From assembly GCF_964204645.1 (NCBI RefSeq), contig NC_134030.1, positions 15,004,110 through 15,068,109 on the forward strand: DNA of 64,000 nt, given 5' to 3'. A program made the position numbers and the translations under genes. A model generated the notes under the pieces. That model had not been told where the DNA came from, made no database searches, and was given only the letters and a program-made list of their open reading frames with translations. The DNA is from Tubulanus polymorphus. Its lineage: Eukaryota > Animalia > Nemertea. Within the stretch, counting starts at the first letter, position 1. Every line of letters starts with the position of its first letter. Shown piece by piece: positions 19,889 through 59,180 of this stretch.

Positions 19889-20070
19889 TTTTTTAATTAT
19901 ATAAATGGCAGAATGTTTTCCAAAAGCTTTCCAATATAATAAATCAATTAAATATAATATTCCAGCAATAGATTTTAATAAAGATATTACATATAGAAAT
20001 GAAGTTTTAAATTCATTAATTGATTTATATATTTATGTTACTGAAAGTAATAATTTTCATGTAAAGATGG

Positions 20071-24685: not shown

Positions 24686-24730
24686 TGTTGAATGCTTTCC
24701 GTCACGGCAGATTGCGCACTGTGTTGCCTT

Positions 24731-26005: not shown

Positions 26006-26032
26006 ATTCTTCTTACAATTGTTCTAAACCAA

Positions 26033-26390
26033 TGTAGACTCCAAACACGAAAATTTACGAAGTCGCAGATCTCTCAATGTCAAACTGACGTCTTACATTT
26101 ATTATCATCATTACCATCGAAGCCGTTTCTAAACAAGAAACAACAACTAAATTAACACACAAATATTATAATAATAACAAGAAATTCGGCTAATAACAAA
26201 TAACTTACAGAACATTTGAGAGTATTAAATCATGTAGCAGCCACAACGTCAGTACACACAAATATAAAAATTCAATACCCACAGATCACCAGATCACCAT
26301 ACAATTTCACACATGAGTAACTTACACACTAGGTTGAGCATGAGCAGTAGAACTGCCAGAAATATGACCATAATACAAACATAAACTACA
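26033..26390 (-). repeat. 5' LTR (358 bp)
   Basis: TG...CA ends; followed on the minus strand by TTGG (PBS position). Confidence 0.97.
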
Positions 26391-30720: not shown

Positions 30721-31292
30721 AGTAATAGGGGTTTAGTTGTTTCAGATCAAAGGTCGAACGGTCGAGCCCATTAAAAAACAAATATTAAAAGTAATTAAAA
30801 AACTATAATATATTTTCATAACCGCGTGCATTTTATATCAAAACTAAATATTTATTATAAGATATCAATAATATAAAAAGCATATTGTATTAAATCAATT
30901 GGTCCGCTTCGCTACCGCTCCGCTCCACGACCAATTGATTTAATTACAATACACAAATTTAAATAATCAAATATATTCAAATGATAATAATTATTCTATT
31001 ATTCAACCGAAATGCACGCGGTTATGAAAATATATTATAGTTTTTTAATTACTTTTAATATTTGTTATTAATGAACTCGATCATTAAACCTTTAACCCGA
31101 AACAACTAAACCCCTATTACTCTTAAAATATTCACATATATATGAATAACATTTAAATCATTGAACTTCTAAAATCAATTTTAATAAAAAATATAGTATT
31201 AAAATGGAAGCAAATAAATACTACTGCCCAACATGTAATATCGATATAGACAAGTCTCAAAAAGCAAGACACAATAAAACTATAACACATTT
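30721..31292 (+). repeat. Left TIR of copy C with terminal fold-back 30721-31121; includes the first ~29 codons of polB
   Basis: Reverse complement of 48542-49089. Confidence 0.95.
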
Positions 31293-34200
31293 AGAGAATA
31301 AATTGAAACTAGAATATAAGGATGATATATTAGAAACTAAATTAGAAGAATTAAAGAATGAAAAAGAAACATATAAATGTGATACATGTAATCAATCATT
31401 CAGTGATAAAAGATATTATAAAGAACATTTAAAATCTATAAGTCATATTGGAAATAAGAATAATGATATTTTAGGTGAAGATTATTTTGATAATGATAAC
31501 GATAAGAAACAGAAGACAATTAAAAGAATAAAAAATAAATTAAACAATAAAAGACCATATATGGAAGATGTAAGAAATTATATTAATTCATTAGATAATA
31601 AAAAAGATATAGAGATAACCGAAGCATTTAAAAGTGATATTGGTCCAGCAGCTATTGAGTTTAAATTTCATAAAAGTAAAACAATAGAAGAAAATAAAAA
31701 ACATTTAGAAAATATGAAAGAAATAATAAAAATAATTACAGATGTTGAATATCCTAAAATAAGTATATCAGTTAAAGTAAAGTTTATAAAATCTGAAGAT
31801 AAACCAATATATAATATAAATTCTCATTCACAACATATTATATCTAAACAACATATAGATGATAAATTAAATAAATGTTATAATGAAATAAAAACTAAAA
31901 TAGAAGAGAAATATTTTGAAGGATCTGGTTTAATATTTGATGAGATAATATTTATAACTTTACATGTTTATAACACAAAATATAATAAGTTAACTAAATC
32001 AAAACCAATTGATGAAAATAATTTATCATATTATAAAGAACCCGATATTGAAGCATCAAGTTATATTAAACTACCATTTAAAACTAATGCTGTAATAAAT
32101 ATACAAAATGAAGATGATAAATGTTTTCTATGGGCTATAATAAGTTGTTTACATCCTGCAACTTATAATATTTGTAGATTAACTCATTATAAACCATTTG
32201 AAAATAATTATAAGATAGATAAGTATCCTGTTAGAATTAAAAACATCCCCAAAATAGAAAGAGATAATAATATAAAGATAAATATATTTGATTTAATCAA
32301 ATTACCAAATACAAAAGGTAACAACATAAAACATTATACATTAGAACCTTTATACCTATCAAAAGATTATGATTCAAATGATGTTATAGATATACTATAT
32401 TATGAGAATCATTATATGTGGATTAAAAGAATTGATTTATTTTTTAAATCAGAAAATGATTTTGATAATAAAATATATCTATGTAGAAAATGTTTACATA
32501 AATTCAGAACTGAAGGTGCATTATTAAATCATAAACAATTATGTGATAATCATGATTATTGTAAATTAGTTTTACCAAATAAAAAAGATAAAATATTAGA
32601 ATTCAAAAAATATGATTACAAAAATAAAGTACCATTTGTAATATATGGAGATTTTGAATCATTAAATAAAGAATTAACAGATAAAGATAGAAAAGATATA
32701 TATTATAAAAGAAAGAAATTAAATTCTAATGAAAATGATTTTTCAGATGAACCACCAATAACAAATACTATTAAAAAGATTCATCAATCAGCTGCAGCTT
32801 TCGGGTTATATATTAAATCTGATTATCCAGAACTAATTGAAAGTGAATATTATCATTACAGAAATGAAAATGTTATCAATCATTTTTGTGACTTATTAAT
32901 TGAATATGAAATAAAATTTAATGAAAAGTTAAATAAGAATATAGAAATAATTATGACAGAAGAAGATAAAGAAGTATTTGAGTTTGCAGATAAATGTTAT
33001 TATTGTGAAAAGATATTTAATTATAAAGATAAAAAAGTAAGAGACCATGATCATTTGAATGGAAAGTTTAGAGGCGCTGCACATGAGAATTGTAACTTAC
33101 AAGCTAAGAAAATTAATTTTGTACCAGTTATATTTTATAATCTATCAGGATATGATGCACATTTATTTATATAACAGCTATGTCATAAAATAGAAGAAAT
33201 CAATAATGAAATAGAAATATTAAATTCAAATAGATCAAAAGATAAAATACCAACTTATAAATTTAAAATGTTAGCTAAAACATCTGAGAATTATATATCA
33301 TTCCAATTTGGTTGTCTAATATTTATAGATTCATATAGATTTTTAAATAGTTCATTAGATAACTTATCAAAATCATTAGTTGATGATGAATTAAAAATAT
33401 TAAAAGAATATTACCCAAATTATGATGATTTTAAATTAATGAGATATAAAGGAGCAATTCCATATTCTTTCTATAAAAATCATAATGATTTTAACATAAC
33501 TGAATTATTGAAAGAACAATTCTATGATGAATTAAAAAATGAATATGTTAAAGATGAAGTTTATAATAGAACATTGAATATTTGGAATCATTTCAAAATA
33601 GAAAATCATGGGCAATTAGTAGATTTATATTTAAAATCAGATGTATTATTATTAACCGATATATTCGAAAGGTTTAGAGATGTAAACCTAAAATATTTTA
33701 ATATTGATCCATGTCATTGTTATTCATCACCAGGATTAACATGGGATTGTGGATTAAAATTTACAGATATAAAAATGGATTTGTTAACAAATATAGATCA
33801 ATTACTTTTATTTGAAAAATCTATAAGAGGAGGTGTTTCAGGTGTATTGGGTGATAGATATTTCAATGTAAATGATAATCCTGGATAAATTATTATACAT
33901 AGATGCAAATATCCTTTATGGTTGGGCAATGATGGAACCACAACCTTATGGGATGTTTGAAATAACTGAAGTTTTACAAATTGATAGATTTGATTGGAAG
34001 AAAAGAATCCTAGATATTGCAGATGATTCAGATATTGGTTACTTCTTTGTTGTAGATTTAGAATACCCTGAAAATATTAAATTAAAATCTAGAAATCTAG
34101 CATATTGTCCCGAACATAAAATTGTTAAACATGAAGAATTATCAAATTATCAAAAAAGAATTAAACCCGATAATCATATTCATACTGAAAAGTTAATGGT

Positions 34201-35227
34201 AACTCAAGAAGATAAATATAATTACGTTGTGCATTATAGAATGTTAAAATTCTATTTGAATCAAGGAATGATATTAAAAAAAGTACATAGATATATTTCA
34301 TTTAATCAATCTAAGTGGTTAGAAAAATATATAGATTTTAATACTACACAGAGAACTGAAGCTAAAACTGATTTTGAGAAGGATTACTTTAAACTAATGA
34401 ATAATGCGTTCTATGGAAAAACATGTGAAAACATAAGAAATAGAAGTGATATTGAGTTAGTTAGTAATGGTAAAAGAATTAGACATTTACAATCGTATCC
34501 GAAATTCATAGGTAACAGAATATTTGATGAAAATTTAGCAGCAGTTAAAATGAGAAGAACAAGTATGAAATTTAATAAACCAATTTATGTTGGTGCATCG
34601 GTTCTAGAAATTTCAAAATTATTAATGTATCAATTTTACTATAACATATTACAACCCCATTTTGGAGAAAAAAATATAGAAATGTTATATCTAGATACTG
34701 ACAGTTATATATTAAAGATAAAAAGTGATAATATAAAAGATGATTTAAAAATATTAAATCACCATTTTGATTTTAGTAACTATCCAAAAAATCATGAACT
34801 ATTTAGCAATGATAATAAAAAAGTTCCTGGTAAGTTTAAGGATGAATTAGGTGGTGAAGAAATGATAGAGTTCATAGGTATTAGATCTAAAATGTATAGT
34901 TATAAAACTAAAGAACATGAAGCTAAAAAGTTAAAAGGAATTACCAAAAGCGTTGTTGAAAAGAATATTCATTTCAAAGATTACATCAATTGTATATTTA
35001 ATGAAGAAGTTAGAAAACATAAAATGAAATGTTTAAGATCTGAAGATCATGAAATGTATATTGAAGAGATAGAGAAGATAAGTCTAAACCCATTTGATGA
35101 TAAAAGATATATTTTAGATGATGGAATCCACACAGTCGCCTATGGTTGCAATTTAGATGAATATATAAAATTCAAAAGAGAAGAAACAAAAGAAAATGAA
35201 ATTATGAAAAGGATTCTAACGTGTTAA
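31204..35227 (+). pseudogene. polB: Protein-primed DNA polymerase B (~1340 aa), copy C; one in-frame stop (33172) and one frameshift (~33885)
   Basis: N-terminal C2H2-like fingers, CFLWAI...HYMWIK, exonuclease with a CxxC..DHDH..GAAH..CN insert, YIDAN.LYG, KLMNNAFYGK, YLDTDS. Confidence 0.96.
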
Positions 35228-35255
35228 TAAATTTCAATAAAAATTTGTATAATAA

Positions 35256-35597
35256 ATGGAGAGTAAACAAGTACACAATGAATTCTTAGATAGAATTAAA
35301 GATACCACAAATGTAAAATCTGTAGATTATAAATTCAAAAAGTTAACAGAATTAACAATTCACAAGAAATATTTAATTACTAACATTGAAACAGTTACTA
35401 ACAAATATGGAGATAAATTAGTAATTCATTTAGAATATGAAGGATTAAAAGGAAATAAATATAAATTCAGAACTTATTTACCAGATAGATTTCATAGATT
35501 ATCAAGTGAAGATCTAGAAGAATTATGTTCTGGAGATTTCTATTTCGTATATAAAGGTAAGAATGAAAAAGGGCACCATGAAATAGATTTCGAATAA
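35256..35597 (+). CDS. 113-aa conserved protein next to polB (possible OB-fold DNA-binding protein)
   Basis: Intact; FKKLTEL...KYGDKLVIHL...YLPDRF beta-strand pattern. Confidence 0.75.
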   Translation: MESKQVHNEFLDRIKDTTNVKSVDYKFKKLTELTIHKKYLITNIETVTNKYGDKLVIHLEYEGLKGNKYKFRTYLPDRFHRLSSEDLEELCSGDFYFVYKGKNEKGHHEIDFE

Positions 35598-35614
35598 GAA
35601 AATACGTAAAATAA

Positions 35615-36373
35615 ATGGCGGAATTAAAAGAATACAGAATATTTGTTGATTCTAGAAGACTTACAAATTATAAATCACATAATTTACTAGTACAATTAGA
35701 TAGAGAATTCAAGAATTGTGTAGATTTAAAATTAGTAAATATAAGTTTATGTAATTCTTTTTACAATGTATCGGATAAGTCTATTGAACATAGAGTCTTT
35801 TTAATTTATGATAGAAATAAAAGTAAATGGTTTCATCTTTATCTTAAACCAGGATTATATAATTTAGAAACATTAGCTCAAGAAATTAATAGAAGAGCTC
35901 GGTTGAAAATGGGTGCATCTGCTGGATTTGGATTAAGACTGATTAAAAGTGATAGTTCTGATAAAATAAGAATAAAATTAGGTAATGAAGATCAACATCA
36001 ATTTCTAGTTAAAAAACCCTTAGCTAAAATTTTAGGAATAACCCCAGATGTAAGGATACGCAATGCTGATGCTACACCAAATATAATGCCATTTACACAT
36101 TTTTATATTTATTGCAATTTAATCGATCCTACAAAAACATTCGAAGCAACTAAAGATATAACTTGTAATTCTGGTTTACTAAACATTTTACCATTGAAGA
36201 ATGTTAAAGAATTTGGAACGCAAATAAATTATAATTTAACAGAATGTGATTTCAAACCATGCATTCCTCGTTTTAATAATTTTAGATTAGAAATTAGAAA
36301 TCATAATGGATACTTAATTGATTTAAATAATTTCCCTGTAATTTATGAATTAGTTATAAGATGTAAAGAGTAA
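35615..36373 (+). CDS. Minor capsid (penton-like, single jelly-roll) protein
   Basis: Typical pattern IFVDSR / NSFYN / PGLYNLETL / YIYCNLI / LEIRNHNGYLIDLN..VIYELVI. Confidence 0.82.
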   Translation: MAELKEYRIFVDSRRLTNYKSHNLLVQLDREFKNCVDLKLVNISLCNSFYNVSDKSIEHRVFLIYDRNKSKWFHLYLKPGLYNLETLAQEINRRARLKMGASAGFGLRLIKSDSSDKIRIKLGNEDQHQFLVKKPLAKILGITPDVRIRNADATPNIMPFTHFYIYCNLIDPTKTFEATKDITCNSGLLNILPLKNVKEFGTQINYNLTECDFKPCIPRFNNFRLEIRNHNGYLIDLNNFPVIYELVIRCKE

Positions 36374-36389
36374 TTTTTTCATTATATAA

Positions 36390-36660
36390 ATGAATATAAC
36401 TGTTGGACCGAGTATATGTTTTGGGTTTGATTTTAAACATGGTAAAGAAATGAGAAAATTATAATATAGAAAAAGTAATTGATTTAATTAAATCACCTTT
36501 AGAATATTATGAATTAAATGAAGATGGAATTATTGATGATATTAAAAACATATTATCCAAAATATATGATAATCATAAAACTAGTAATGAAATAAATGTT
36601 GAAATAATCATAAATAAGATAACTAAATATTTTGATGATAGTAATTTTTTTGATAAATAA
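36390..36660 (+). pseudogene. MNITVG protein with internal deletion
   Basis: Homologous to 7800..8141. Confidence 0.7.
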
Positions 36661-36882
36661 ATGAGTGATAATAAGTGGATAATAACTGGATTATATAATG
36701 GCGCATTACTATCAGTTGGAACTGTTGGTTATTCAATGGTATTAAAAAAAGTATTCAAAATGGGAAGTGTTAATGTTGATAGATTTGATATAAATGATAT
36801 TTTAAAGTTAACGTTAGCAGTTACTTTATCTAATTTAACTATTGATTATTTGGAAAAACAAAAATATATTCCTCCCATATAA
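36661..36882 (+). CDS. 73-aa hydrophobic/membrane protein
   Basis: Two hydrophobic segments; conserved between copies. Confidence 0.8.
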   Translation: MSDNKWIITGLYNGALLSVGTVGYSMVLKKVFKMGSVNVDRFDINDILKLTLAVTLSNLTIDYLEKQKYIPPI

Positions 36883-36906
36883 ATGTATAATTTTTTTGCT
36901 AAATAA

Positions 36907-37329
36907 ATGGCTTCTGCAATTATAACTATTATAGGATCGGCAATTGTTAACGCTTTAGCATTTACTGGTGGTGGTTATTTATTTAAACATATTGATAAAA
37001 ATAGTTCATTAGGAGAACAAAGAAGACATAACTTAGCGTTAGAGAAATACAATAAAGCTGCAGAAGAATATAGAGAAAAAAGACAAAACTATATGGATTA
37101 CATCAATAAAGAATTATATGATCAGAAGATTTCACATAGAGATTTTCAATCAGTTGATGATGCAATGAGTTTATATAACGCAGTAACAAATAAAGAAAAA
37201 TTACATCTATACAAACCTAAATTATCAGATTATTATACCCCAAGTAAAGAACAACAGAAATATGAAATAATTTGGATTTTAGGTGGAACAGTTATTGTTA
37301 TATTTGTTGCTTATAAGTTTACTAATTAG
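36907..37329 (+). CDS. 140-aa predicted membrane protein
   Basis: Hydrophobic N-terminus and C-terminal TM IIWILGGTVIVIFVAY. Confidence 0.85.
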   Translation: MASAIITIIGSAIVNALAFTGGGYLFKHIDKNSSLGEQRRHNLALEKYNKAAEEYREKRQNYMDYINKELYDQKISHRDFQSVDDAMSLYNAVTNKEKLHLYKPKLSDYYTPSKEQQKYEIIWILGGTVIVIFVAYKFTN

Positions 37330-37348
37330 TAATTTTTTTTCTAAATAA

Positions 37349-37783
37349 ATGGAAGATAAAGTTGATAGTATTGATATTATTCCTCATGATATAAATAAAA
37401 CTAAATTAAAAACATATTTAGAAAAACAAATATTAGAATTTGAAAGTGACTTAAAGATAAAAAAGAAAAAATATTTAAAAAGTTAAATTATATATTATTT
37501 GATTATAAGTGGTTCGGTTACAATTAGTTCTGTAATAACATTTCTAGCAATATTCAGTCCATTAACGCCTTTAGCTATATCAATTGGTGTGTTAGGATTA
37601 AGTTCAAGTGTTTTAACTGGTATAAGTTCAAAATTAAATATAAAAAGTAATAAAGAAAAAATCAAAACTAATATAAAAGAAATTAATAAATTAAAGAACA
37701 CACTAGATTATATAATAAGTTTAAATGGTCATATAACAGTTGAAGAACAAGATAAATTATTAAAAGAATTAATAAATTATTAA
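37349..37783 (+). pseudogene. Two-TM membrane protein (MEDKVD), frameshift near 37484
   Basis: TAAATG start; 3' part is track ORF 37499..37783. Confidence 0.72.
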
Positions 37784-37799
37784 TTTTTTAATTATATAA

Positions 37800-39101
37800 A
37801 TGGGGTTTCCAAAAGCTTTCCAATATAATAAATCAATTAAATATAATATTCCGGCAATAGATTTTAAGAAAAATATTACATATAAAAATATAGTTTTAAA
37901 TTCATTAACTAATTTAGAAATTTATGTTAATGAATCACAGTTTTTTATTTCTAAAATGGAAAATATATTTAATACATATGAAGTTACTTTTACTCGAGAT
38001 GAATATCATATATATAAAGTAAAATCTAATATGAAGTATTGGCAGAACCAATTAAATTTTGCTGTTTATTGTGCAACAACAGGATGTGGAATAAGTTGGA
38101 ATGATCATTTAAATAACTTAGATAAAAATTTGAAGTATTCTGATTTAAAATTAATTCACACAATATTTAGATTTCACACATATTTTCAAATCAGAATAAT
38201 ACTAAATGAATTAGAATGTCCTTTACCCGGGTCTAAATATTTTAAAGAATTGGATAATAATATTAATATATCCACGTTTTATAAAATATGTAATGAATTT
38301 AATATAAATATTAATTCCGATTTTAGAGCGCATGGTAAATTGCAAGGTGTTGGTGAAGAGTTTGAAATAAAAAGAATTGATTATATGCATAGAATTTCAG
38401 CTTATCATAATTATAAAATTGATAATAATAATGGTTGGGTTAATTTCATTTTAGAAAATGGTGAAGGTTTTACAAAATCAGGTATACAAAGAATAAATCA
38501 ATCTATTAGAATTTATTTGATATGTATTTTAGGCGCCCAAGTTGAAACAAGATCCCCAATAATTGGAAATGATAACACTTCATTCGATGCGCAGAAACAG
38601 TTTAAAGTTTTATTTGAAGATTCCATACATGATGATAAAAATAGATCGATTCCAGAAAACATTATAAGATATCAAAATTATTTAGATAAATCTCATGTAA
38701 GACTTAATTATTGTATAGGCCCTAATCTATTAATTATTTCTAATGATTTAGTATTGAAGATGGGAAACATAATTGGTTATAATAATCTAATTAAAACTGC
38801 AACAATAAATAATTCATTTGGATTGAATGATATAAATAAAAAGATTATTACTGCTCCAAAATTAATGGAAGGTGAAAAAAATAAAAAACATATTCAATCA
38901 ACAGAAACTAAAACTAAGAATATTAAATTAAATAATGATTCTAAAATAAAAGATTACAATACATCAGAAAATAATAGAACTGATAAAATTCAACATGATA
39001 TAATTAAACTAAATGATGATAATAAATCACATGAAAATACTAAATTAGCTATAACTTGTATAGGAATTGTAATCGGAGGAATATTATATTTTAAATTTTA
39101 A
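37800..39101 (+). CDS. 433-aa uncharacterised protein with C-terminal TM anchor
   Basis: Conserved YWQNQLNFAVYCATTGCG and RFHTYFQ blocks; C-terminal LAITCIGIVIGGILYF. Confidence 0.85.
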   Translation: MGFPKAFQYNKSIKYNIPAIDFKKNITYKNIVLNSLTNLEIYVNESQFFISKMENIFNTYEVTFTRDEYHIYKVKSNMKYWQNQLNFAVYCATTGCGISWNDHLNNLDKNLKYSDLKLIHTIFRFHTYFQIRIILNELECPLPGSKYFKELDNNINISTFYKICNEFNININSDFRAHGKLQGVGEEFEIKRIDYMHRISAYHNYKIDNNNGWVNFILENGEGFTKSGIQRINQSIRIYLICILGAQVETRSPIIGNDNTSFDAQKQFKVLFEDSIHDDKNRSIPENIIRYQNYLDKSHVRLNYCIGPNLLIISNDLVLKMGNIIGYNNLIKTATINNSFGLNDINKKIITAPKLMEGEKNKKHIQSTETKTKNIKLNNDSKIKDYNTSENNRTDKIQHDIIKLNDDNKSHENTKLAITCIGIVIGGILYFKF

Positions 39102-39117
39102 TTTTTTTATTATGTAA

Positions 39118-40833
39118 ATGGATGTAGAAGGTGGAGAAGATTATGAAATGGGAGAAATGGGAAATAATAATGAAGGATATATTGATGATGATTATAATGA
39201 TACAGGTGCTAATATCGATAATGATGATGAATCAGCATATAATACTAATTTAGGTGAAGATGATTATGATGATGATGATGGAATTAATACCGAAGTACGT
39301 GAAAAATTAAATAAATATTTAAAAGCTCCTGAAAGTGGTAGAATTTCAACTAGAACAGAAAGAAAAGAATTCATGAAACTATTAGAAAAACAACAAGAAA
39401 AATATCCTAATGAACATTTGGAATTATATAGAATGAAATCTAGAGTAACAGATACAATTGTTAACGAATTATTACCAAAAGTTGTAATAGATGAAATTGA
39501 TACTGAAGATGTTGTAGAACAAATTTTTAAAGATGACCCATATTTCACAAATAATTTAGAATTTAAAAATGATTCATGGTATTATAATCTTGAATTAAAT
39601 AGGAATACTGTATCAATTCAATTATCTAGAATGGGTCAAGAAAATATTTTTGAACCTGGAATGCGAGCATTATCTACAATTGAAGGTTCAAAAGGTGGTA
39701 GAGAATTTCTCAGAATTATATGGAATGCAATCGATAGAATAAATGAAGAAGAACCAATTCCTAATATTAATATAAACAAATATTCACCATTTAAAAATCC
39801 AAATCCTACTGATTTTGATCCAGAAATGGAAGATCATAGAAATCGATTAGATAAATTAAGATCTTCAACACCCGAAACATCGAGAAGAGACACTCAACAA
39901 ATTGATAATGATTCAAGTCAATTACAATTAACATTAGAAAAACAAATTGATAGATTAAGAGATTCAGAAGAACTGATGAATAGTATATCAGATACATCTG
40001 GTTCTGAAACTGGAATAAATCGAATACAATCTTTACTAGAAAAAGGATTACTTGATTTAACTGATGAAGAATTAAAAGAATTTCCTGAACAAGCACGTAG
40101 AGAAATTAAAGGTATACAAGAATCAGCTGGTGAAATTGCTAATATTAAGATGAGATTTTCTAAAATAACCATATTAGAAAAAGAATTAGTTAATGTAGAT
40201 GAAGAATTAAAACAATTAGAATTAAATAGAGATCTTCAATTAATCGAGGAAGCTGATTATGAAAGCAGAAAGTTAGCTTTAGAAAAAGAAATAGATGATT
40301 TAGAATATAACATAAAATTACAAAAAGAAGAAAGAGATACATTATTAAAATCATATGATCTTAATCATATTAAAAAATTAAAAGTTATTTTTAAAGATTT
40401 GTTGATAAAACCAGATTCTAAAATATCATTGAAAGATAGAATAAAGTTATTATTTAAATTAGAAGGAATAACAATTCTTTCAATTCTAACAGCTGTAACT
40501 ATGTTATTTACAACAATTGGTTTAGCTATATCAAATGCTTTAAAATCTACTCCTACTCCCACTCCCAATAAACCAGATAAACCTCCAGGTAATAATTCTA
40601 TACAAGATGAAGTTAAAGATGGTTTAAAGAAATTAGCAAAATATTTATGGGAACTATCTAAAAAATCTGCTGCAGCACTACCAGGAGTTATTGCTTCAAT
40701 TGTTGGTTTTGTTTTAAAATCTGCAGGTAATATTCTTAACTTTGCTGCTGAACATATTATTTTATTTTTAATTACAGTTGTAAGTGCTATTATTTTTGGT
40801 TTAGTAAATATGATATCAAAAAATATCAAGTAA
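39118..40833 (+). CDS. 571-aa acidic/coiled-coil protein with C-terminal hydrophobic helices
   Basis: Intact ORF; coiled-coil-like middle; GITILSILTAVTMLFTTIGLAI and IILFLITVVSAIIFGLV. Confidence 0.85.
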   Translation: MDVEGGEDYEMGEMGNNNEGYIDDDYNDTGANIDNDDESAYNTNLGEDDYDDDDGINTEVREKLNKYLKAPESGRISTRTERKEFMKLLEKQQEKYPNEHLELYRMKSRVTDTIVNELLPKVVIDEIDTEDVVEQIFKDDPYFTNNLEFKNDSWYYNLELNRNTVSIQLSRMGQENIFEPGMRALSTIEGSKGGREFLRIIWNAIDRINEEEPIPNININKYSPFKNPNPTDFDPEMEDHRNRLDKLRSSTPETSRRDTQQIDNDSSQLQLTLEKQIDRLRDSEELMNSISDTSGSETGINRIQSLLEKGLLDLTDEELKEFPEQARREIKGIQESAGEIANIKMRFSKITILEKELVNVDEELKQLELNRDLQLIEEADYESRKLALEKEIDDLEYNIKLQKEERDTLLKSYDLNHIKKLKVIFKDLLIKPDSKISLKDRIKLLFKLEGITILSILTAVTMLFTTIGLAISNALKSTPTPTPNKPDKPPGNNSIQDEVKDGLKKLAKYLWELSKKSAAALPGVIASIVGFVLKSAGNILNFAAEHIILFLITVVSAIIFGLVNMISKNIK

Positions 40834-40877
40834 ACCATGATATCAAAAAATAAATAATTAATTTTTTTGTTAAATAA

Positions 40878-42125
40878 ATGAGTGGGAGTTATATAAGTCC
40901 TTCTAAGATTTCTAGAATATCTAATGCTATTAAAGCAGAAAGATCACATCATATAATTACTCATAACCCTTCAAATATTAATCCCGATGAAACTTTATAC
41001 GTTAGAATCCCTCGATTAACACAAAATACTTTTTATGTTCCAAATAGTATTTATTTATCAGCTGATATAAAAGTAATCGGTAATAATAATAATTATGTCG
41101 TTGATAATGTTGGAAGATATTTGATTAAAAAGTTAACAATAAAGATTGGTCCGGAAACAGTTTTCTCATTAGATGATTATAATTTATTTATGCATTATAA
41201 AGATTTATGGTTAACTAAAGAAAATAGAAATAATATGATATTTCAAGGAATTCAATTAGAAAACCAAAATAAATTAAGATCAGAAGCTAATAGCGCAATA
41301 TTAACAAATGATGTAGGTAAATTGATAAAAAGTATATATGGAAGCAAATATAAAATTCCATTAGACTTTGAATTGATAAATAATAATGCACCTTTATATA
41401 AATACGCAATTCAAGAAGATATTATATTTGAGATAACATTTGCTCCTGTAAATGAAATTGTAATATCTAGCGTTAATAAAGATATGAGTTATAAATTATC
41501 GAATATATGTTTAGAATATGATACAGTAACTGATGAAAATATTGCTAGAACAATTCAAACTCAATACAATCAAGGATTTTCATTATTATATGATTATATT
41601 GATAAATTTAAAACTGTAACTATTAATGCAAATGATGAAATAATAAATGAGAATATTAACTTCCCAAGAAGATCTATTAAAGGTATATTAATATTTTTTA
41701 CTATTGGAACGTATACTAATGGCGCAATAAATGTTGACAATTATTATAATCATGAAATAACAAAAGTAGAAATAACTATCGAAGGTATAGCGAATAAAAT
41801 ATTTTGTCAAGGAATGAGAATGATAGATCAATGGGTAGAAATTAAAAAACATTTTATGAATGAAAAAGTAAAATCATTTGAAAATTGTAACATTAATCAA
41901 ATTGATTATTATACCGGTAATAAATATGCATTATGGTTAGATTTTAGAACAACTGAAGATAATTCATTACATGGTTCTGGAAAAAAACTACAAAACACTT
42001 AAGATGGAATACAATTATTCATGACAAAGAAAAAGGGAATCAAAAATTTTAAAATGCACATTTATATTATATCTGACGCGCAATTAAATATTGTAAATTC
42101 ACAATTAGATAGTGTTATGTATTAA
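40878..42125 (+). pseudogene. Major capsid protein, copy C; one in-frame TAA at 42000
   Basis: Homologous to 11980..13242; the frame continues to ...DSVMY* at 42125. Confidence 0.78.
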
Positions 42126-42157
42126 AATTTTAACTTTAATAAAAATATATATAATAA

Positions 42158-43114
42158 ATGGAAGGAGGTAAAGTATATAAACATATTCCATACATCGATA
42201 CACATGAAAATAATGATGGTTTATATTATGTAATACCTTGTAATATAGCTTTGATATTTGATCCTATTTTTAAAAATTATAAAACTAAACTGATAGAAAT
42301 CAATAATAATAAAAGTGGTGTTGTTAATAATAGTGTAATTGATAATAATGTAATACCTACTACACCTGTAATACCTACTACTACATCTGTAATACCTTCT
42401 ACATCTAATAGCGTAATACCTACTACATCTAATAACGTAATACCTACTACATCTGTAATACCTACTACATCTAATAACGTAATACCTTCTACATCTAATA
42501 ATGCAATAATATTAAATGTTAGTGAAAATAGAAATTATTGTGGTTATTGTAATGGTGAATTTTCAAACGCTCCATCAAATTGGAATAAACATATGAATAC
42601 AAATTCACATATTACTAATGTTATAGAACGTGTTGGTTTAAGAGAATTTATAGAACACCCATTTAGATATGTTACAAAGTTTGTTTCAAATAAAAAAGTA
42701 AATGGTGAAAAAATATATGAAGATTTATTATTAGCAACACCTAATAAAGATGAATTAGATTTAACTGATGCTAATGAAATATTAGGATCAAACACTGTAA
42801 ATGAAATATTAGGAGCAAACACTAATAAAGATGATAATGAAAATGATGCCATACACCCACATGATGATATAGTTACAGTTAAACATATTGATAATAAAGA
42901 TTCTATAAAACTTAAAGTAGAAAATAATGATAAATTTGATTGGATGAATAAGTTTAAAAATGAAACAACTATTGGTGGTGTGGTAAAAAAGGTGAAAAAG
43001 GTGAAAAAAAATTATAAAGATGTTGATGTAGATTCGGTAGAGCATTTAAATATGTTGTTAAGACCGTCTGATAGTGAAAGTGATTCAGAAATTGATTATC
43101 TAAAACTTGAATAA
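42158..43114 (+). CDS. 318-aa protein with VIPTT/S repeats and a C2H2-like zinc finger
   Basis: YCGYCNGEF...WNKHMNTNSH; acidic tail. Confidence 0.8.
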   Translation: MEGGKVYKHIPYIDTHENNDGLYYVIPCNIALIFDPIFKNYKTKLIEINNNKSGVVNNSVIDNNVIPTTPVIPTTTSVIPSTSNSVIPTTSNNVIPTTSVIPTTSNNVIPSTSNNAIILNVSENRNYCGYCNGEFSNAPSNWNKHMNTNSHITNVIERVGLREFIEHPFRYVTKFVSNKKVNGEKIYEDLLLATPNKDELDLTDANEILGSNTVNEILGANTNKDDNENDAIHPHDDIVTVKHIDNKDSIKLKVENNDKFDWMNKFKNETTIGGVVKKVKKVKKNYKDVDVDSVEHLNMLLRPSDSESDSEIDYLKLE

Positions 43115-43171
43115 TAAAAGTTGAAAATTGTATAAAATAATATTAAATAAAAAAAGGGTTTTAATTATTCA

Positions 43172-43288
43172 AGGTATCTAATGGGGTATCAGGTATTAGG
43201 GTATCTAATAGGGTATCAGGTATTAGGGTATCAGGTATTAGGGTATCTAATGGGGTATTAGGTATTAGGGTATCTAATACATAGGTAT
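43172..43288 (+). repeat. Short GGTAT-based tandem repeat in the convergent intergenic gap
   Basis: GGTATCTAATGG / GGTATCA / GGTATTAG units. Confidence 0.85.
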
Positions 43289-43296
43289 ACAAATAG

Positions 43297-43908
43297 TTAT
43301 TTTATAAATTTATATTCATAAGGAAATTGTAATCTCAGTAATAATTTTGAACCTTTATTATTTTTTAATTTATTCATATATTCATCATGTAATTCAGTAG
43401 GTATAATTTGATTTTCTTCCAATGATTGTTGCATAGATTTTCTATCTTTGTTGTAGAATAAAACTAGAAATCTTATATTCTCTCTAAAATCTTTCACAAT
43501 TGAATTATATTTCTGATTTAAAACCCATGTTGTTATCCCAAAATGTCTACCAGAGAAAGCTAAATAACATAACTCACTTTCTCTAATTTTAGAATCATGT
43601 AAATTTGCGCAATCATCAATAATAAATAATGTATTTGATCCTTTATAAATATCTAATACAATTTTTATACAATTATCTAAATTTTCTTTTACTATTTTAG
43701 GGTCTAATATAATAAACTTTTTTATCTTAACTATATCTCTATTATATGTTTTATTCATTTCATATGTAGGACAGAATAATATTATATTATCAAAATGATT
43801 CTTATAAATAGTTTCTAACAAATCTAATATGAAATGTGTTTTACCACAATTTGTAACTCCAGTAACTAACATATTATGTGGTTCAAATATAAATAAATCT
43901 TTATTCAT
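43297..43908 (-). CDS. A32/FtsK-like genome packaging ATPase
   Basis: Walker A GVTNCGKT, Walker B FIIDD, SGRHFGITTWVLNQ. Confidence 0.92.
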   Translation of the reverse strand: MNKDLFIFEPHNMLVTGVTNCGKTHFILDLLETIYKNHFDNIILFCPTYEMNKTYNRDIVKIKKFIILDPKIVKENLDNCIKIVLDIYKGSNTLFIIDDCANLHDSKIRESELCYLAFSGRHFGITTWVLNQKYNSIVKDFRENIRFLVLFYNKDRKSMQQSLEENQIIPTELHDEYMNKLKNNKGSKLLLRLQFPYEYKFIK

Positions 43909-44989
43909 TTATTCTTTTAATTTTACTAGATAAAATCCATTCATTAAATTTATCATCATATCCTTTATATTTCACCAAAGAATACTTTTTTCCTTTAAGA
44001 GTTTTTGTTTTCAATACTTTTTCTATTTTGTATTCTATTTCATCTGGATTTGGTACTAATGATAATTCTTGTTCATAAAAATAACCTAATATTTCTTCAT
44101 CTTTTAGATCTTCTAGTTTATAAACAAATGGTTTAGTTAATATTATCTTTTTAATTTTAAATATTTCTTCAGTAAAATTAGGGGTATAACCTTTATAAAA
44201 TGTTTTTCGATATTTAGAAATTCTAACGTGTTGTCCTATCTTAAATTTAGGTTCACCGAAATCATGTGTAACAAATGCTCCATATAAATTATTCCAAACT
44301 ATTTCCGAATTATCTTCTTTTCTAGCTTGTATGGGTTTCATATTTATAGAACTATGTTTAGAATTATTATAACCTTTCACTAAATCATCTAACACATCGA
44401 TATATTTATATGTTTCATTAGCGGTGAAATATTTCCACATTCTAGTTTTCAATGTTTTATTAAATCTTTCTATAACAGATGCTTTTTTATCTGAATGTGT
44501 TGAAAAATATTCTACATCGTTATCAGATAATAGTTTTTTAAAATGTTTGTTATAAAATTCTTTACCTTCATCAAATTGTATTTTATCTGGGATAGCTTCT
44601 TTAAATATAGATTTAAAAGCATTTGTTACTTCTATACCAGTTTTATTTTTAATCGGGATACTCCATGCGTATCTACTGAATATGTCTATAACATTCAGTA
44701 TCCAAAAATATCCTTTGTTGTATTCTTCTAAGTTCTTCATGTCAATTAAATCAGCTTGCCATTGTTGGTCAATATATGAAACCATAACTTTTCTTGTTAA
44801 ATATTTTTTATCCATCTTTTTATGAATTTGATATGTGGGTTGATTTTGTAACCATGATTTTAATTCACTATATTTTATATCACTATTATCGGATTTAATT
44901 TTATTCCATAATTCTGAAACGTTAGAATATGATACTTCACTTTCTGGGTTATAATATAAATCTCTTAAATATTGTTCTTTTTTCATCAT
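43901..44989 (-). CDS. int: Retroviral-type (rve) integrase with C-terminal chromodomain
   Basis: WQADLIDM, IDIFSRYAW, FDEGKEF, IERFNKTLK; YKIEKVL...VKYKGYDDKFNEWI. Confidence 0.95.
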   Translation of the reverse strand: MMKKEQYLRDLYYNPESEVSYSNVSELWNKIKSDNSDIKYSELKSWLQNQPTYQIHKKMDKKYLTRKVMVSYIDQQWQADLIDMKNLEEYNKGYFWILNVIDIFSRYAWSIPIKNKTGIEVTNAFKSIFKEAIPDKIQFDEGKEFYNKHFKKLLSDNDVEYFSTHSDKKASVIERFNKTLKTRMWKYFTANETYKYIDVLDDLVKGYNNSKHSSINMKPIQARKEDNSEIVWNNLYGAFVTHDFGEPKFKIGQHVRISKYRKTFYKGYTPNFTEEIFKIKKIILTKPFVYKLEDLKDEEILGYFYEQELSLVPNPDEIEYKIEKVLKTKTLKGKKYSLVKYKGYDDKFNEWILSSKIKRINE

Positions 44990-44992
44990 ATT

Positions 44993-45352
44993 TTAATCCA
45001 TTAATAATATTTTAGATTTATTTTCATTTGATTTATTTTCTGGTGGTTTATTGTCTGTACATGGATAACTAAGTTTCCGATCATCTTTATCGTCAGATTT
45101 GAATTTTGATTTGTATATTACACCGGATAATATAATAACTGTTACTAACCCAATTGTAATATATAAGTAATTATTTCTTCCACTATTAGAAGAATTAGAT
45201 GGATTATTATTTGAATCAATACCAGGTGATTCATTTATATCAGTTAATTTCTTTTTCTTAGCTTTTTTTAATTCTGATGATCTTTTACCTAATTCTCTTG
45301 CCCATTTAATTTGTTTCTCTGATCTAGCCTTTTTCTTAACTCCATCACTCAT
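44993..45352 (-). CDS. 119-aa basic protein with one TM segment
   Basis: YITIGLVTVIILSGVIY; intact in B and C. Confidence 0.8.
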   Translation of the reverse strand: MSDGVKKKARSEKQIKWARELGKRSSELKKAKKKKLTDINESPGIDSNNNPSNSSNSGRNNYLYITIGLVTVIILSGVIYKSKFKSDDKDDRKLSYPCTDNKPPENKSNENKSKILLMD

Positions 45353-45947
45353 TTATTTTAGTTAATTTTTGTTCTGATTCATCTTCTGTTTCAACGTTTG
45401 GTTGTAGTACATCTGTTTCGTTCTTACCTGATTTATATTCCATAGGTTTGATGTTTGAAAATGTTATAACTCCAGTAGAAATCAATGTCATAACCGATCC
45501 TAATTGAAATGAAGCATATCCAACCCATTTTTGTAATTCAGTCATAACTAAATAGTCATTTTTCAAATCATTATATAATTTATTTTCATCATCAATTGGT
45601 ATTAACTGCTTACATAATTTTGAATAACATTTGATAATACCATCACTTATAGAGTCGTTTATTCTAGCTAATCTTGCCTCTTCATAAATCTTAAAATATT
45701 TTATTACTTTATCGGGTTTCATAGAGTCTAGTTCTTGAAAAGTTATTATTTTTCCTAAGAAGTCCTTAGATTTCCCACCAGCAATTAATAATTCAAGATG
45801 ATGCTTACAATATAAATAGTATTCATAATCTATATTGTTATTAACTTGAGCACAATTAGTTGCAACTGTATCTTTATTATCACTTATACCCAAATCATCT
45901 AATGTCTTTTCAATATCAATACTATTCTTATTAGATTTCTTTGACAT
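45345..45947 (-). CDS. 200-aa uncharacterised Polinton protein
   Basis: Intact in B and C with many synonymous differences. Confidence 0.85.
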   Translation of the reverse strand: MSKKSNKNSIDIEKTLDDLGISDNKDTVATNCAQVNNNIDYEYYLYCKHHLELLIAGGKSKDFLGKIITFQELDSMKPDKVIKYFKIYEEARLARINDSISDGIIKCYSKLCKQLIPIDDENKLYNDLKNDYLVMTELQKWVGYASFQLGSVMTLISTGVITFSNIKPMEYKSGKNETDVLQPNVETEDESEQKLTKINE

Positions 45948-46216
45948 TTATATTAGAGAAATTTAATAAGAAAAATATTATAAGTATTATAAAATGATAC
46001 CAGTATCTCTTTAGATTAATACTAGCTTAGTAAAAGGTAAAGAATTTTAGTATTGACTACTGATACTAGCTATTTGAATTTAAAGAATTTCTATTTGAAT
46101 CTATTTAAAATATAAAGTATTCTCTTTTGAAAAAAAAGTATCAAAAATATAATAGAAATAATAGATAGTTGAAGGTATGTAATTTTTATTATATTTTATT
46201 TAAAATCTATTATTCT

Positions 46217-46882
46217 TTAACCACTCATTAAAGACTCAACGTATTGTTCATTATGTGTTGAATTCCATAATTCAATAAATTTTTTTGCTTTATCCAGTTG
46301 ATTCAAATATAACTGTAAATCTAGTTTATTAGATTTAATTATATTTTCTTTCTTTTCAAGAGGTCTTAGATTCTTCCAATTCCAAATAAGTTTTTTATTA
46401 TATTCATCATTCATGTTAAATTTAGATATTGGTAACACGTGATCAATGTGGTAATAATCCCCATAATTATCTATATTCATTTTATCATCGAATTGAAATA
46501 TTATCCATGATTTGAGAAATTCATCTGAACAACCCAACAAATTAGATAGTGTTTCTGAATGTGTTTCTTTGTTGAATAATTGTGTTATTCAAGTCCTTAA
46601 GCATTGTTTCAATCTAAAATTAAGATCTGTTTGATATCTTTCTCTCATATATTTTGTCATATAATAATTATAATGTTTTATATTATCTTCTCGATATTGT
46701 TTGGTGTATAGTTTAGCACAAGTTTTACAACAATTTTGAAAACCATCTTTGCTAATCTTACGCTTACTAAATTCTGTTATAGCTAATTTATCTAATTCAC
46801 ATTTAGAACACTTCTTGTAGTATATGTTTATAACGCCAGTGTTATTTGTAATATTGATAGTTTGTGGTTGTTCTGGTTCCAT
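46217..46882 (-). pseudogene. HNH endonuclease, disrupted in copy C
   Basis: Two track ORFs homologous to intact 52664..53335. Confidence 0.8.
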
Positions 46883-47020
46883 TTATTATATGTATTTTTT
46901 TTACTAAATTGGTTAATAATTTTAGAATCCTCTTCCATTTCTCCGACTAACGTCATCCTTTTTCATTCCTCGCTGTTTTTGATAAGTCAGTTTCGATTCC
47001 TTGATATCTAAATAATACCA

Positions 47021-47490
47021 CTGGGCAAAACCGCGCATTCATGCGCGCTTTTGATCAATGCGCATGCGCTAATCATAATTATATATTCATTCTGTAAATT
47101 CTGTAAAATAGAAACGACCGAACACAGAAAATATCAAAACGTGTTCACATTAGGTAAAACCGCGCATTCGTGCGCGCTTTTGATCAATGCGCATGCGCTA
47201 ATCATAATTATATATTCATTCTAGAAATAGAAACGACCGAACATAGAAAATTCAAACGCATGTACACTAGGCAAAACCGCTCTTATAGGAGCGTTTTTGA
47301 TCAATGCGCATGCGTTAATCATAATTATATTTACATAATGAATATATAATTATGTAAATAGAAACGACCGACATAAAATATCAAAACGTGTTCGCATTAG
47401 GTAAAACCGCTCTTATAGGAGCGCTTTTGCTTAATGCGCATGCGCTAATTATAATTATATATTCATTCTGAATAGAAACGACCGAACATA
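47021..47490. repeat. Four ~117-130-bp tandem units, each with a stem-loop and TGCGCATGCG
   Basis: Units start at ~47021, 47151, 47268 and 47398; copy B has a single unit (~53472-53550). Confidence 0.9.
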
Positions 47491-48456
47491 AAAATTCATC
47501 AATCAGATTTACACAATACATTATACAAGTTGTTCGGTCGTTTCTTCCAATACATCATTTGATTTCTATAAATACAATTTATAATTACAAACATTTTTTC
47601 AATTGCTGGTAAATATTTAACTACATCAACAAATGTTAAACTTAATCATTGGAGTCTTAATGTTTTTGAAATTCTTATATAGTTTCTTCGACGATCTTTT
47701 GGGCGATTCTTGTGTTTCTTGTGTTAATTTCTATTGGTTTGATATCCATTGCTGTTGATTCCTCAGTCAGAAAGAGTATCTTGAGTTTCTCTATCACTTC
47801 TTGATGCGTATGGCGTTTTACTAATCTAAAAGATATTAGCGGTAACTCTAACTATCTAAAAGATATTCTAAATACGCTTAAATATATCTAAAGGTTTCAT
47901 ATTTAATAGCCTTAATAACTACAACAAACAGTACTTACATTTAGATTTATAATTGTAAACTATAAACTCCTAATTTCGTTTCGAAAGATAGAATATCCTG
48001 AGCACAATATTACAGCGTATATCCCGTCATCTAGTTCCGGCGCGCCTTTCTAGAATATTCTCTACACGTTTCTGATTATGACGCGTCATCTCTATTCAGA
48101 GTTCCAGCACAGTTTGTAATATTATGAGTCATAATGTCTCGTTGTTATAGTAACAACTGTAACAGCTGTGAATTTATAGATTTATTCTATGGCTCTGTAC
48201 ATTGAATGTATATAGGCCCAAATAGAATCATGTTCTAGTATAAACATCTAGAACAAGCGTGTTGAGACTTGTAAATTATGAGATTTGTGATTCGCTACGT
48301 TCGCTGTATACACAACGTGTTGAAGTTGAAAAAAACAATAATAAAAGCATTTAGATTAATGAAATTAATTAACTCTTTACAATTGAAATATAAGCTGGTA
48401 ACATATGTTTACTAGAGCTAATACAACCAACTATATAGCTGAGTATTATCGGGTGT

Positions 48457-48630
48457 TTATAACGATTCAACATATTTTTCACCATGTGTTGAGTTCCTTA
48501 ATTCGATAAATGTCTTTGCTTTAACCAACTGGACTAAAAACAAATGTGTTATAGTTTTATTGTGTCTTGCTTTTTGAGACTTGTCTATATCGATATTACA
48601 TGTTGGGCAGTAGTATTTATTTGCTTCCAT
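48457..48630 (-). CDS. 57-aa chimeric ORF: polB first zinc finger fused in frame to an HNH-gene C-terminal tail
   Basis: Manual translation MEANKYYCPTCNIDIDKSQKARHNKTITH-LFLVQLVKAKTFIELRNSTHGEKYVESL*. Confidence 0.45.
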   Translation of the reverse strand: MEANKYYCPTCNIDIDKSQKARHNKTITHLFLVQLVKAKTFIELRNSTHGEKYVESL

Positions 48631-49089
48631 TTTAATACTATATTTTTTATTAAAATTGATTTTAGAAGTTCAATGATTTAAATGTTATTCATATATATGT
48701 GAATATTTTAAGAGTAATAGGGGTTTAGTTGTTTCGGGTTAAAGGTTTAATGATCGAGTTCATTAATAACAAATATTAAAAGTAATTAAAAAACTATAAT
48801 ATATTTTCATAACCGCGTGCATTTCGGTTGAATAATAGAATAATTATTATCATTTGAATATATTTGATTATTTAAATTTGTGTATTGTAATTAAATCAAT
48901 TGGTCGTGGAGCGGAGCGGTAGCGAAGCGGAGCGACCAATTGATTTAATACAATATGCTTTTTATATTATTGATATCTTATAATAAATATTTAGTTTTGA
49001 TATAAAATGCACGCGGTTATGAAAATATATTATAGTTTTTTAATTACTTTTAATATTTGTTTTTTAATGGGCTCGACCGTTCGACCTTT
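48542..49089 (-). repeat. Right TIR of copy C (fold-back 48713-49089, outer end deleted)
   Basis: Reverse complement of the left TIR of copy C. Confidence 0.95.
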
Positions 49090-49372: not shown

Positions 49373-49759
49373 GATATTAATTATATTTAACTCAAATAAT
49401 AATATTAGTTGAAAATTGTATAAAATAATATTAAATAAAAAAGGGGGTTTTTAGTATTTAAGGTATCTAATACATATCTAATACGTATCTAATACGTATC
49501 TAATACGTATCTAATACGTATTATTTGAAAATACCTTAAATTATATTTCTTTTTTAAATTTATATTGAAACCTCAGTAATAATAAATAACCTTTATTATT
49601 TTCAAACTTATTCATATATTAGTTGAAAAAAATAAAAATAAATTGGTTGAAAATTATATGAATAATATTTATTTTAAAAATGGGGTTTTAAGTATTAATG
49701 TATTTAATACGTATCTAATACGTATTTAATACACATTAGATAGATAGATATATAAATAG

Positions 49760-50371
49760 TTATTTTATAAACTTATATTCATAGGGAAATTGTAGTCTCA
49801 GTAATAATTTTGAACCTTTATTATTCTTTAATTTATTCATATATTCATCATGTAATTCAGTAGGTATGATTTGATTTTCTTCCAATGATTGTTGCATAGA
49901 TTTTCTATCGTTATTGTAGAATAAAACTAGAAATCTAATGTTTTCTCTAAAGTCTTTAACAATTGAATTATATTTTTGATTTAAAATCCATGTTGTTATC
50001 CCAAAATTTCTTCCAGAGAAAGCTAAATAACATAACTCACTTTCTCTAACTTTTGAATCATGTAAATTTGCGCAATCATCTATAATGAATAATGTATTTG
50101 ATCCTTTATAAGTATCAATTGCTATTTTAATACAATTATCTAAATTTTCTTTTACTGTTTTAGGGTCTAACATAATAAACTTTTTTATCTTATCTATGTC
50201 TCTATTATATGTTTTATTCATTTCATAAGTAGGACAGAATAATATTATATTATCAAAATGATTCTTATAAATAGTTTCTAACAAATCTAATATGAAATGT
50301 GTTTTACCACAGTTGGTTACACCAGTAACTAACATATTATGCGGTTCAAATATAAATAAATCTTTATTCAT
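49760..50371 (-). CDS. A32/FtsK-like packaging ATPase (copy B)
   Basis: GVTNCGKT, FIIDD. Confidence 0.92.
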   Translation of the reverse strand: MNKDLFIFEPHNMLVTGVTNCGKTHFILDLLETIYKNHFDNIILFCPTYEMNKTYNRDIDKIKKFIMLDPKTVKENLDNCIKIAIDTYKGSNTLFIIDDCANLHDSKVRESELCYLAFSGRNFGITTWILNQKYNSIVKDFRENIRFLVLFYNNDRKSMQQSLEENQIIPTELHDEYMNKLKNNKGSKLLLRLQFPYEYKFIK

Positions 50372-53335: not shown

Positions 53336-54263
53336 TTATTATACATATTTTTTTACTAAATTGGTTAATATTTTAGAATCCTCTTCCATTTCTTCGACCA
53401 ACGTCATCCTTTTTCATTCCTCGCTGCTTTTGATAAGTCAGTTTCGATTCCTTGATATCTAAATAATACCACTGAGCAAGACCGGGCATTCAAGCCCGGT
53501 TTGGATCAATGCGCATGCGTTAATCATAATAGAAACGACTGAACATAAAAATTCACCAAACAGATTTACACAATACATTATACAAGTTGTTCAGTCGTTT
53601 CTTCCAATACATCATTTGATTTCTATAAATACAATTTATAATTACAAGCATTTTTCAATTGCTGGTAAATATTTAACTACATCAACAAATGTTAAACTTA
53701 ATCATTGGAGTCTTAATGTTTTTGAAATTCTTATATAGTTTCTTCGTCGATCTTTTTGCGATTCTTGTGTTTCTTGTGCTAATTTCTATTGGTTCGATAT
53801 CCCCATTGCTGTTGATTCCTCAGTCAGAAAGAGTATCTTGAGTTTCTCTATCACTTCTTGATGCGTATGGCGTTTTATTAATCTAAAAGATATTAGCGGC
53901 AACTCTAGCCATCTAAAAGATATACTAAATACACTTAAATATATCTAAAGGTTTCATATTTAATAGCCCTAATAACTACAAAAAACAGTACTTACATTTA
54001 GATTTAGAATTGTAAACTATAAACTCCTAATTTCGTTTCGATAGATAGAATATCCTGAGCACAATGTTACAGCGCCTGTTCATTTCTTGCCACGTCATCT
54101 GGTTCCGGTTCTAGAGTGTTCTCTCCACGTTTGTAATAATGACTCATATGTCTCGGCGTCATAGTAACAGCTGTAACAGCTGTGAATTTATAGATTTATT
54201 CAATCGTTCATTACATGAAATGTATATAGGCTCAAATAGAATCATGTTCTAGTATAAACAGCT

Positions 54264-59000: not shown

Positions 59001-59059
59001 AATGTTCTCAATGACCATGTTGATTGGGAGGACCACAGATTTAGGTTACGGTTCCTGAA

Positions 59060-59180
59060 CTTCGCTGAAAAGCTGAAATACTGAAACGCTGAAATGCCGA
59101 AAAGAAAACGCTGAAATTTCAGGGAATTTCCGAAAAAAGCTGAAATTTCAGGGAATTCACGAAAAACGCTGAAAAAATCT
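59060..59180. repeat. Degenerate GCTGAAA short tandem repeats
   Basis: Several (G)CTGAAA units and two GCTGAAATTTCAGGGAATT copies. Confidence 0.7.

Follow-up and report, generated by a model that had tools for sequence, protein, structure and literature searches.

Which RNA polymerase reads the genes of an endogenous virus-like element that carries a poxvirus-style signal at nearly all of its gene starts? This question is raised by element B, which occupies positions 30721-49089 of a window of 64,000 nucleotides (the whole stretch analyzed; all positions below refer to it) from contig NC_134030.1 of the nemertean Tubulanus polymorphus, and which shares that window with the related copies A and A2/C. 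B is a genuine, though decayed, member of a family of integrating Polintons present in many copies; its 16 genes form two blocks that converge, and it has the very low GC content (24.5%) that a first-pass annotation of this DNA had pointed out. We consider it moderately probable that B represents an integrating satellite that has its genes transcribed by a co-infecting large DNA virus of pox-like type, through that virus's post-replicative RNA polymerase, since a near-universal start of the poxvirus late type, which is almost absent in distant relatives, makes it likely that the element borrows the transcription machinery of such a virus.

The hexamer TAAATG was present at 14 of the 16 gene starts of B, as had been noticed in the first-pass annotation, while among the other 732 ATGs only 44 carried it (Fisher p 6e-15); the two starts without it belong to pPolB (TAAAATG) and the integrase. 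We then compared 82 loci, among which one clade of the major capsid protein (MCP), the locus L031 and the outsiders were set apart. In 17 loci (13 in the MCP clade, three partial ones at 50-56% identity, and L031) TAAATG was found at 71/85 open reading frame (ORF) starts, versus 6/393 in the other 65. When core genes only were counted, in 11 clade loci (without the near-duplicates L004 and L015 and the partial L016, L019 and L063) and 30 of the 65 outsider loci, the motif was present at 41/46 starts in the clade, 9/9 in L031, 0/53 in low-GC outsiders, and 0/118 in high-GC outsiders. It is restricted to one capsid clade plus L031, independently of GC. The clade spans 20-44% GC and has a support of 100/98 in a 26-row MCP tree (a 90-row tree was a quick search only); P0192, which resembles Polinton-3_NV by eye, sits just outside it (82/81). 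L031 is a distant relative (35% MCP identity) outside the main clade, with TAAATG at 12/14 starts. The tree needs two changes for the motif, while a single clade was not rejected (p-AU 0.053). In L005, a deoxynucleoside kinase (10340-10981, minus strand; PF01712, E 1.7e-31) also has a T-rich TAAATG start, which we count in favor of a pox-like helper. At -3, a purine predominates in outsiders, as is usual in a Kozak context (A in 43/53 low-GC core starts), whereas the clade has T, so TAAATG is not a Kozak context. In RNA polymerase II (Pol II) geometry, the TATA box lies upstream of the start and not over the ATG; since the motif overlaps the ATG, it cannot be the TATA box of its own gene.

The ten nucleotides at positions -16 to -7 divided the genes of B into a T-rich class (6-8 T, eight genes) and an A-rich class (6-8 A, seven genes), with the integrase in neither. 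The classes are given with the features of B below (coordinates, strand, description; TIR, terminal inverted repeat; TM, transmembrane).

30721-31121, plus: left terminal imperfect fold-back, 401 nt, starting with AGT; GC-rich loop near 30903-30935
30749-31292, plus: left arm of the 548-nt TIR, 99.3% identical to the right arm; contains the first 89 nt of pPolB
31204-35227, plus: pPolB with N-terminal zinc fingers and an endonuclease VII domain; start TAAAATG, A-rich upstream
35256-35597, plus: g113, function unassigned; A-rich, TAAATG
35615-36373, plus: likely minor capsid protein (penton), from an Atlas feature match and position; A-rich
36390-36660, plus: g113b, broken near 36455; T-rich
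36661-36882, plus: g73, conserved, weakly hydrophobic; T-rich
36907-37329, plus: g140, two hydrophobic segments; T-rich
37349-37786, plus: g145, two-TM protein with an in-frame stop at codon 46; T-rich
37800-39101, plus: g433, conserved helical protein with a C-terminal membrane anchor, no fold match, not adenain-like; T-rich
39118-40833, plus: g571, acidic/coiled-coil, three hydrophobic segments; T-rich
40878-42002, plus: MCP, double jelly roll of the Polinton-3_NV type, ending prematurely in B; T-rich
42158-43114, plus: g318, zinc-finger protein with 24-nt repeats; A-rich
43115-43296, no strand: repeat-rich spacer between the convergent gene blocks
43297-43908, minus: A32 packaging ATPase (PF04665, E 5e-11); A-rich
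43901-44989, minus: rve integrase with chromodomain (PF00665, E 1.9e-9); no TAAATG
44993-45352, minus: g119, one TM segment; A-rich
45345-45947, minus: g200, conserved, no invariant His or Cys; T-rich
46217-46882, minus: endonuclease VII/HNH nuclease, split into two ORFs; A-rich
46995-47469, no strand: four repeats of ~125 nt, each with a small hairpin and TGCGCATGCG
47471-48250, no strand: conserved non-coding block, 95.6% identical to copy C over 549 nt
48542-49089, minus: right TIR with fold-back, terminal 28 nt gone

Statements on published systems refer here and below to the accessible parts of the papers cited. In vaccinia virus, TAAAT(G) lies over the start codon in intermediate and late promoters (PMC11980589, PMC5294985), as in B; the late ones have TAAATG with a T at -10, and the intermediate ones TAAA with an upstream preference for A, with the A32 ATPase in the intermediate group and membrane proteins of the virion in the late one (PMC11980589). 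The two upstream classes of B, as far as their sequences can tell, resemble these late and intermediate promoters. In B and its relatives, T was found at -10 from TAAAT in 40/44 virion-type starts, 10/23 others, and 14/44 non-start TAAATG, a contrast tempered by a virion/other grouping drawn up with B already in view and by the non-independence of orthologues. Unlike vaccinia virus, B encodes no recognizable RNA polymerase or late factor, and promoter function in B is predicted from sequence. Published descriptions of TAAATG promoters or hairpin ends in Polintons were not found, though subscription journals, Repbase and preprint supplements may hold one; the TAAATG promoter code is apparently unreported, a well-controlled feature of a known lineage. 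The earlier idea of helper-read promoters was substantially supported by a motif that is clade-specific, GC-independent, opposed to Kozak context and coupled to two vaccinia-like classes.

The same motif reads TAA-ATG, and the genes are tightly packed, so one might take it for a by-product of low GC or for a signal in translation, acting through coupling of stop and start or through re-initiation on polycistronic RNA. We regard this as very improbable: the gene preceding g73 does end in the TAA of the motif, but most upstream stops lie 15-45 nt away or downstream of the start, the motif is missing from all 53 core starts of equally packed low-GC relatives, and the two upstream classes would be left unexplained. 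To our knowledge, no pox-like virus has been described from this host, which we count in favor of a different helper, namely a large DNA virus of another kind (related to iridoviruses, asfarviruses or others) that brings its own polymerase and a TAAAT-like initiator. Ranavirus promoters have TAAAT, late promoters of African swine fever virus (ASFV) are bipartite too (PMC5294985), and the named homologue of the nuclease of B comes from a mimivirus-type virus. However, the exact overlap with ATG, the T at -10, and the T-rich/A-rich split fit the vaccinia description, and TATA-like and TCTA motifs are given for ASFV and CroV, respectively (PMC5294985); such a helper therefore appears unlikely, though a serious contender.

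A third explanation is suggested by the region near the right end of B. The word TGCGCATGCG, which we take to be NRF1-like, occurs four times at 46995-47469 versus 0 expected in shuffles, and words near 48040-48090 are presumably ETS-like and CRE-like. The ratio of observed to expected CpG is 1.57 in the repeat/non-coding region versus 0.52 in coding DNA. The block at 47471-48017 shows 95.6% identity between B and C, against a divergence of ~0.28 at synonymous sites, and its minus strand has a donor-like GTAAGT (47938) and an acceptor-like TTTTAG; from these signals the block is a possible spliced Pol II leader or RNA. The absence of visible introns claimed earlier is true of the ORFs, but the non-coding block carries that donor-like site. 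An Rfam scan gave no match, and codon-shuffle analysis of GTRAG did not discriminate between clade and outsiders. As a separate observation, hairpin stems at 46995-47469 and 53474-53525 vary between repeat units yet stay paired, adjoining the invariant TGCGCATGCG. Taken together, the repeats, the ETS- and CRE-like words, the raised CpG and the donor-like site suggest some host Pol II input. B could accordingly be an autonomous nuclear element transcribed by host Pol II through this block and its own regulator (e.g., the zinc-finger protein g318), with TAAATG as a private initiator, and the roughly 50-95 nuclear copies estimated below fit this as well. We nevertheless find it decidedly unlikely, because (i) TBP, PC4 and VLTF had no Pfam match among the unassigned proteins scanned, the first two of which bear on this point; (ii) L005, which is without g318, keeps TAAATG at 15/16 starts; and (iii) the motif leaves no 5' untranslated region and has T at -3.

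The fold-back ends of about 400 bp reported earlier were confirmed: the left one (30721-31121; 401 nt) reached -109.5 kcal/mol (z -21.6), and none of 100 shuffles was as good. Between copies A and B, nine positions were changed in both arms together, and five arm mismatches were shared, four of them C/T, so either the arms served as templates for each other or their pairing was maintained. The right TIR of B took up the first 89 nt of pPolB (48542-48630), and the inner TIR segment of copies A and C differs from that of B, which suggests that the ends were re-copied from each other. L038, which has no TAAATG, begins with AGTAGT and has a TIR of ~100 nt without a long fold-back. The terminus of B matched no clade locus, and the link between hairpin and motif thus rests on one host family. 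Further hairpin leads were rejected: a 16-mer from the hairpin loop occurred in 15 viral contigs, none with element-like proteins or a long fold-back, and was ascribed to chance; the putative terminal hairpin of L067 surrounds TTAGGG repeats; and that of L077 is internal.

The set of pPolB, MCP, penton, A32 ATPase and integrase announced in the first-pass annotation was supported by Pfam for pPolB, integrase and ATPase and by fold for the MCP, but for the penton by the Atlas match and position only. pPolB is broken into three ORFs (31204-33174, 33268-33888, and 33872-35227), the middle one of which matched PF03175 (E 8e-6), and is 41-44% identical to the full-length pPolB of L038. The MCP fold was predicted from the ORF of copy A (its last few residues changed by a deletion) with a 40-row alignment and gave a double jelly roll (pLDDT 83), with iridovirus and PBCV-1 capsids as top matches (E 1e-17); virophage MCPs ranked 39 and 42 in the BFVD list, under nucleocytovirus MCPs, a ranking of structure matches and not a tree. 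The penton had an Atlas match of 0.98 to unnamed viral clusters and no Pfam or PDB match. The nuclease is of the giant-virus HNH type, as proposed (PHROG 1035, E 9e-15), and of its 76 homologues a single one has an informative name, a Niemeyer virus nuclease (37%). Five proteins (g140, g145, g433, g571, and g119) passed a Kyte-Doolittle threshold of 1.6, whereas g200 (1.34) and g73 (1.16) were weaker, so that five of the at least six membrane proteins claimed are well founded. The g145 orthologue in L005 matched SLATT weakly (E 0.0013), and profiles of g113 and g200 had no PDB match under E 0.1.

The absence of a protease also proved correct. Pfam scans of the B proteins gave no match to adenain, and the longest stop-free stretch outside assigned genes is 70 aa, which leaves no coding room for it. 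As a candidate protease or fusogen, g433, which is helical, was rejected for want of a match (BFVD best E 0.12, PDB best Z 4.5, Atlas blank), and these failed matches do not show a new fold; g200 was rejected as an adenain-like protease as it has no invariant His or Cys. B thus has neither the adenain that serves as a criterion for Polintoviricetes groups 1/2 (adintoviruses) nor a virophage maturation protease. It does have pPolB, an rve integrase, and the 548-nt TIR with AG...CT ends (left AGT; copy C ends with ACT) by which Polintons are recognized.

The capsid of B, judged by its sequence, is that of the described, protease-less Polinton-3_NV lineage: 56/118 residues were identical to the published Polinton-3_NV MCP (PMC4028283, Fig. 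S3; residues 18-135, ungapped, by eye), and Table S1 of that paper, in the part accessible, lists Polinton-3_NV and N1/N1A/N1B_NV of Nematostella vectensis as positive for MCP and ATPase and negative for protease. The family is therefore not undescribed, and its protease-less state is not new. This MCP type is related to that of PgVV (PMC4028283), and Barth et al. place it outside the Mavpol clade, near PgVV; Bellas and Sommaruga place octocoral, hydrozoan and bivalve ATPases near Aquintoviruses. Among 50%-identity representatives we found 1,475 MCP relatives at E < 0.001, many on large contigs, while IMG/VR held no relatives of the MCP, the MCP profile, P0192, or the integrase. MCP homologues filed under bacterial assemblies (the P0046 cluster, L001, and L002) are likely host-derived contamination. 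The families of g571, g433, penton, g140, g73 and integrase recur in 20-40 of the 82 loci, including TAAATG-less ones. Since the membrane-rich, protease-less set is common to relatives without the motif, it is no sign of helper dependence.

The accessible part of PMC4028283 describes, for the Nematostella elements, neither a promoter motif nor a fold-back end nor a set of membrane proteins. Mavirus and the EMALE provirophages of Cafeteria share with B the pPolB and rve integrase, integration, and a motif before nearly all genes, but differ in their virophage capsid and protease, a TCTA motif matched to a known helper, a protist host, and demonstrated reactivation; helper late promoters are carried by both mavirus and Sputnik (PMC6723459). 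The entomopoxvirus-associated Polinton-like viruses (PLVs) AHEV_PLV1/2, CBEV_PLV1 and Ca_PLV1 are animal PLVs proposed as poxvirus hyperparasites, and their lineage 2 MCP branches near Polinton-3_NV; unlike B, they are ~12 kb long, encode adenain, and have no rve integrase (PMC11296320). The terms "promoter" and "TAAAT" have 0 occurrences in the main text of that paper. For virophages and PLVs of Halocafeteria, terminal palindromes were proposed to prime replication, and nested insertions occur as they do here, but the palindromes are of 52 nt in the subtype shown, the replicases mostly non-pPolB, and the host a protist, versus 401 nt and pPolB in B (10.64898/2026.07.28.741278).

The claim of an 18.4-kb element from TIR to TIR held as to the TIRs, but the right end is 28 nt short, no 6-bp target-site duplication is visible, the junction being deleted, and B is nested inside the g318 gene of copy C, ~205 nt of which are gone at the junction. 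Five of the 16 genes of B are broken, by mutation or assembly error (pPolB, g113b, g145, MCP, and HNH nuclease). The cluster as a whole extends over 1969-54718 and comprises A (1969-13245, right part lost) and A2/C (one element, 13246-20045 plus 26459-54718), both ~85-91% identical to B. The dN/dS between copies was 0.06-0.34 in 9/9 gene pairs, which indicates divergence under purifying selection before decay. In raw reads of run X6, probably from another individual, the depth was 385-744x in element bins versus 6-12x in six low-depth flank bins, which suggests roughly 50-95 element copies; 366 reads extend past the left tip into flanks that differ from one another (agreement 0.36) and hence indicate many insertion sites. 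No read pile-ups at element termini were seen in X6, although free linear genomes could go unnoticed in sheared short reads. Runs X7 and X8 held only short element fragments, and run X5, a marine metagenome, low-depth contigs matching both element and flank, which do not support a claim about habitat. Several neighboring features were recorded as well. A BEL/Pao long terminal repeat (LTR) retrotransposon lies inside A2/C at ~20070-26390, with open gag and pol ORFs and LTRs 97.8% identical; given the host range of such retrotransposons, it points to an animal as host. To the left of A (219-1933, minus strand) are ORFs of 406 and 165 aa without a Pfam match, in DNA of 43-45% GC. High-copy host repeats at 57005-57471 and 58873-64000 reach depths up to ~8,500x versus the 6-12x of the low-depth flank. 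Repeats or inverted repeats 3' of the ATPase (43115-43296 and 49420-49760) are also found in L003 (3684-3875), L005 (9082-9359) and L007 (3183-3255), mostly between convergent genes, and are a possible 3'-end signal.

Returning to a satellite read by a pox-like helper, we propose the following course of events. Integrated copies would be mostly silent, with the CpG-rich, host-factor-like block perhaps driving nuclear expression of the leftward nuclease/integrase block and so helping to release a linear copy. In a helper-infected cell, the A-rich, intermediate-like promoters would act first, yielding pPolB, g113, penton, ATPase, g318 and nuclease, and the T-rich, late-like ones would then yield the MCP and most membrane proteins. 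Vaccinia virus makes a slipped poly(A) leader from TAAAT, and initiation inside TAAAT may give such a leader here. The fold-backs would be the origin for replication by the element's own pPolB and be re-copied arm to arm, membrane-containing particles would form without adenain cleavage, and the integrase would re-insert genomes. By analogy with mavirus, a role in antiviral defense is plausible.

Beyond the host-factor-like block, several points weigh against this proposal. No helper genome, transcript, particle or free genome was seen, and a single literature search on pox-like viruses of marine invertebrates gave nothing relevant. TAAATG is short and AT-rich, and TAAAT is shared with ranavirus promoters (PMC5294985). 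The integrase has TAAATG in L003 and L031 but not in B, and the A-rich class includes penton and g119. For AATAAA, codon-shuffle ratios (observed/expected) were 1.09 and 0.93 in the clade versus 0.83 and 1.01 in outsiders, with no separation, and TTTTTNT was depleted in all groups (0.35-0.74). The hairpin orientation is the same at all four ends in the window, so no flip/flop like that of poxviruses or adeno-associated virus is shown. Finally, a cytoplasmic polymerase cannot simply read a nuclear provirus.

For animal Polintons, no virion has been observed, and expression and spread are described as an open question (10.64898/2026.06.19.733378). A broader view, which we consider possible but doubtful, is that of an animal endogenous virophage-like clade wired to the intermediate/late cascade of a poxvirus-like lineage yet to be discovered in aquatic invertebrates, a clade which would form membrane particles, provide a heritable, inducible antiviral defense, and have acquired helper dependence perhaps twice (in the main clade and in L031) within a family of Kozak-type starts. 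Relatives with the same genes are split into those with pox-style and those with ordinary starts, and this built-in contrast makes helper dependence testable. Dependence on a pox-type helper predicts such a virus in hosts where we found none reported and, if true, would widen the range of endogenous virophage-like viruses beyond protists to the germ lines of animals.

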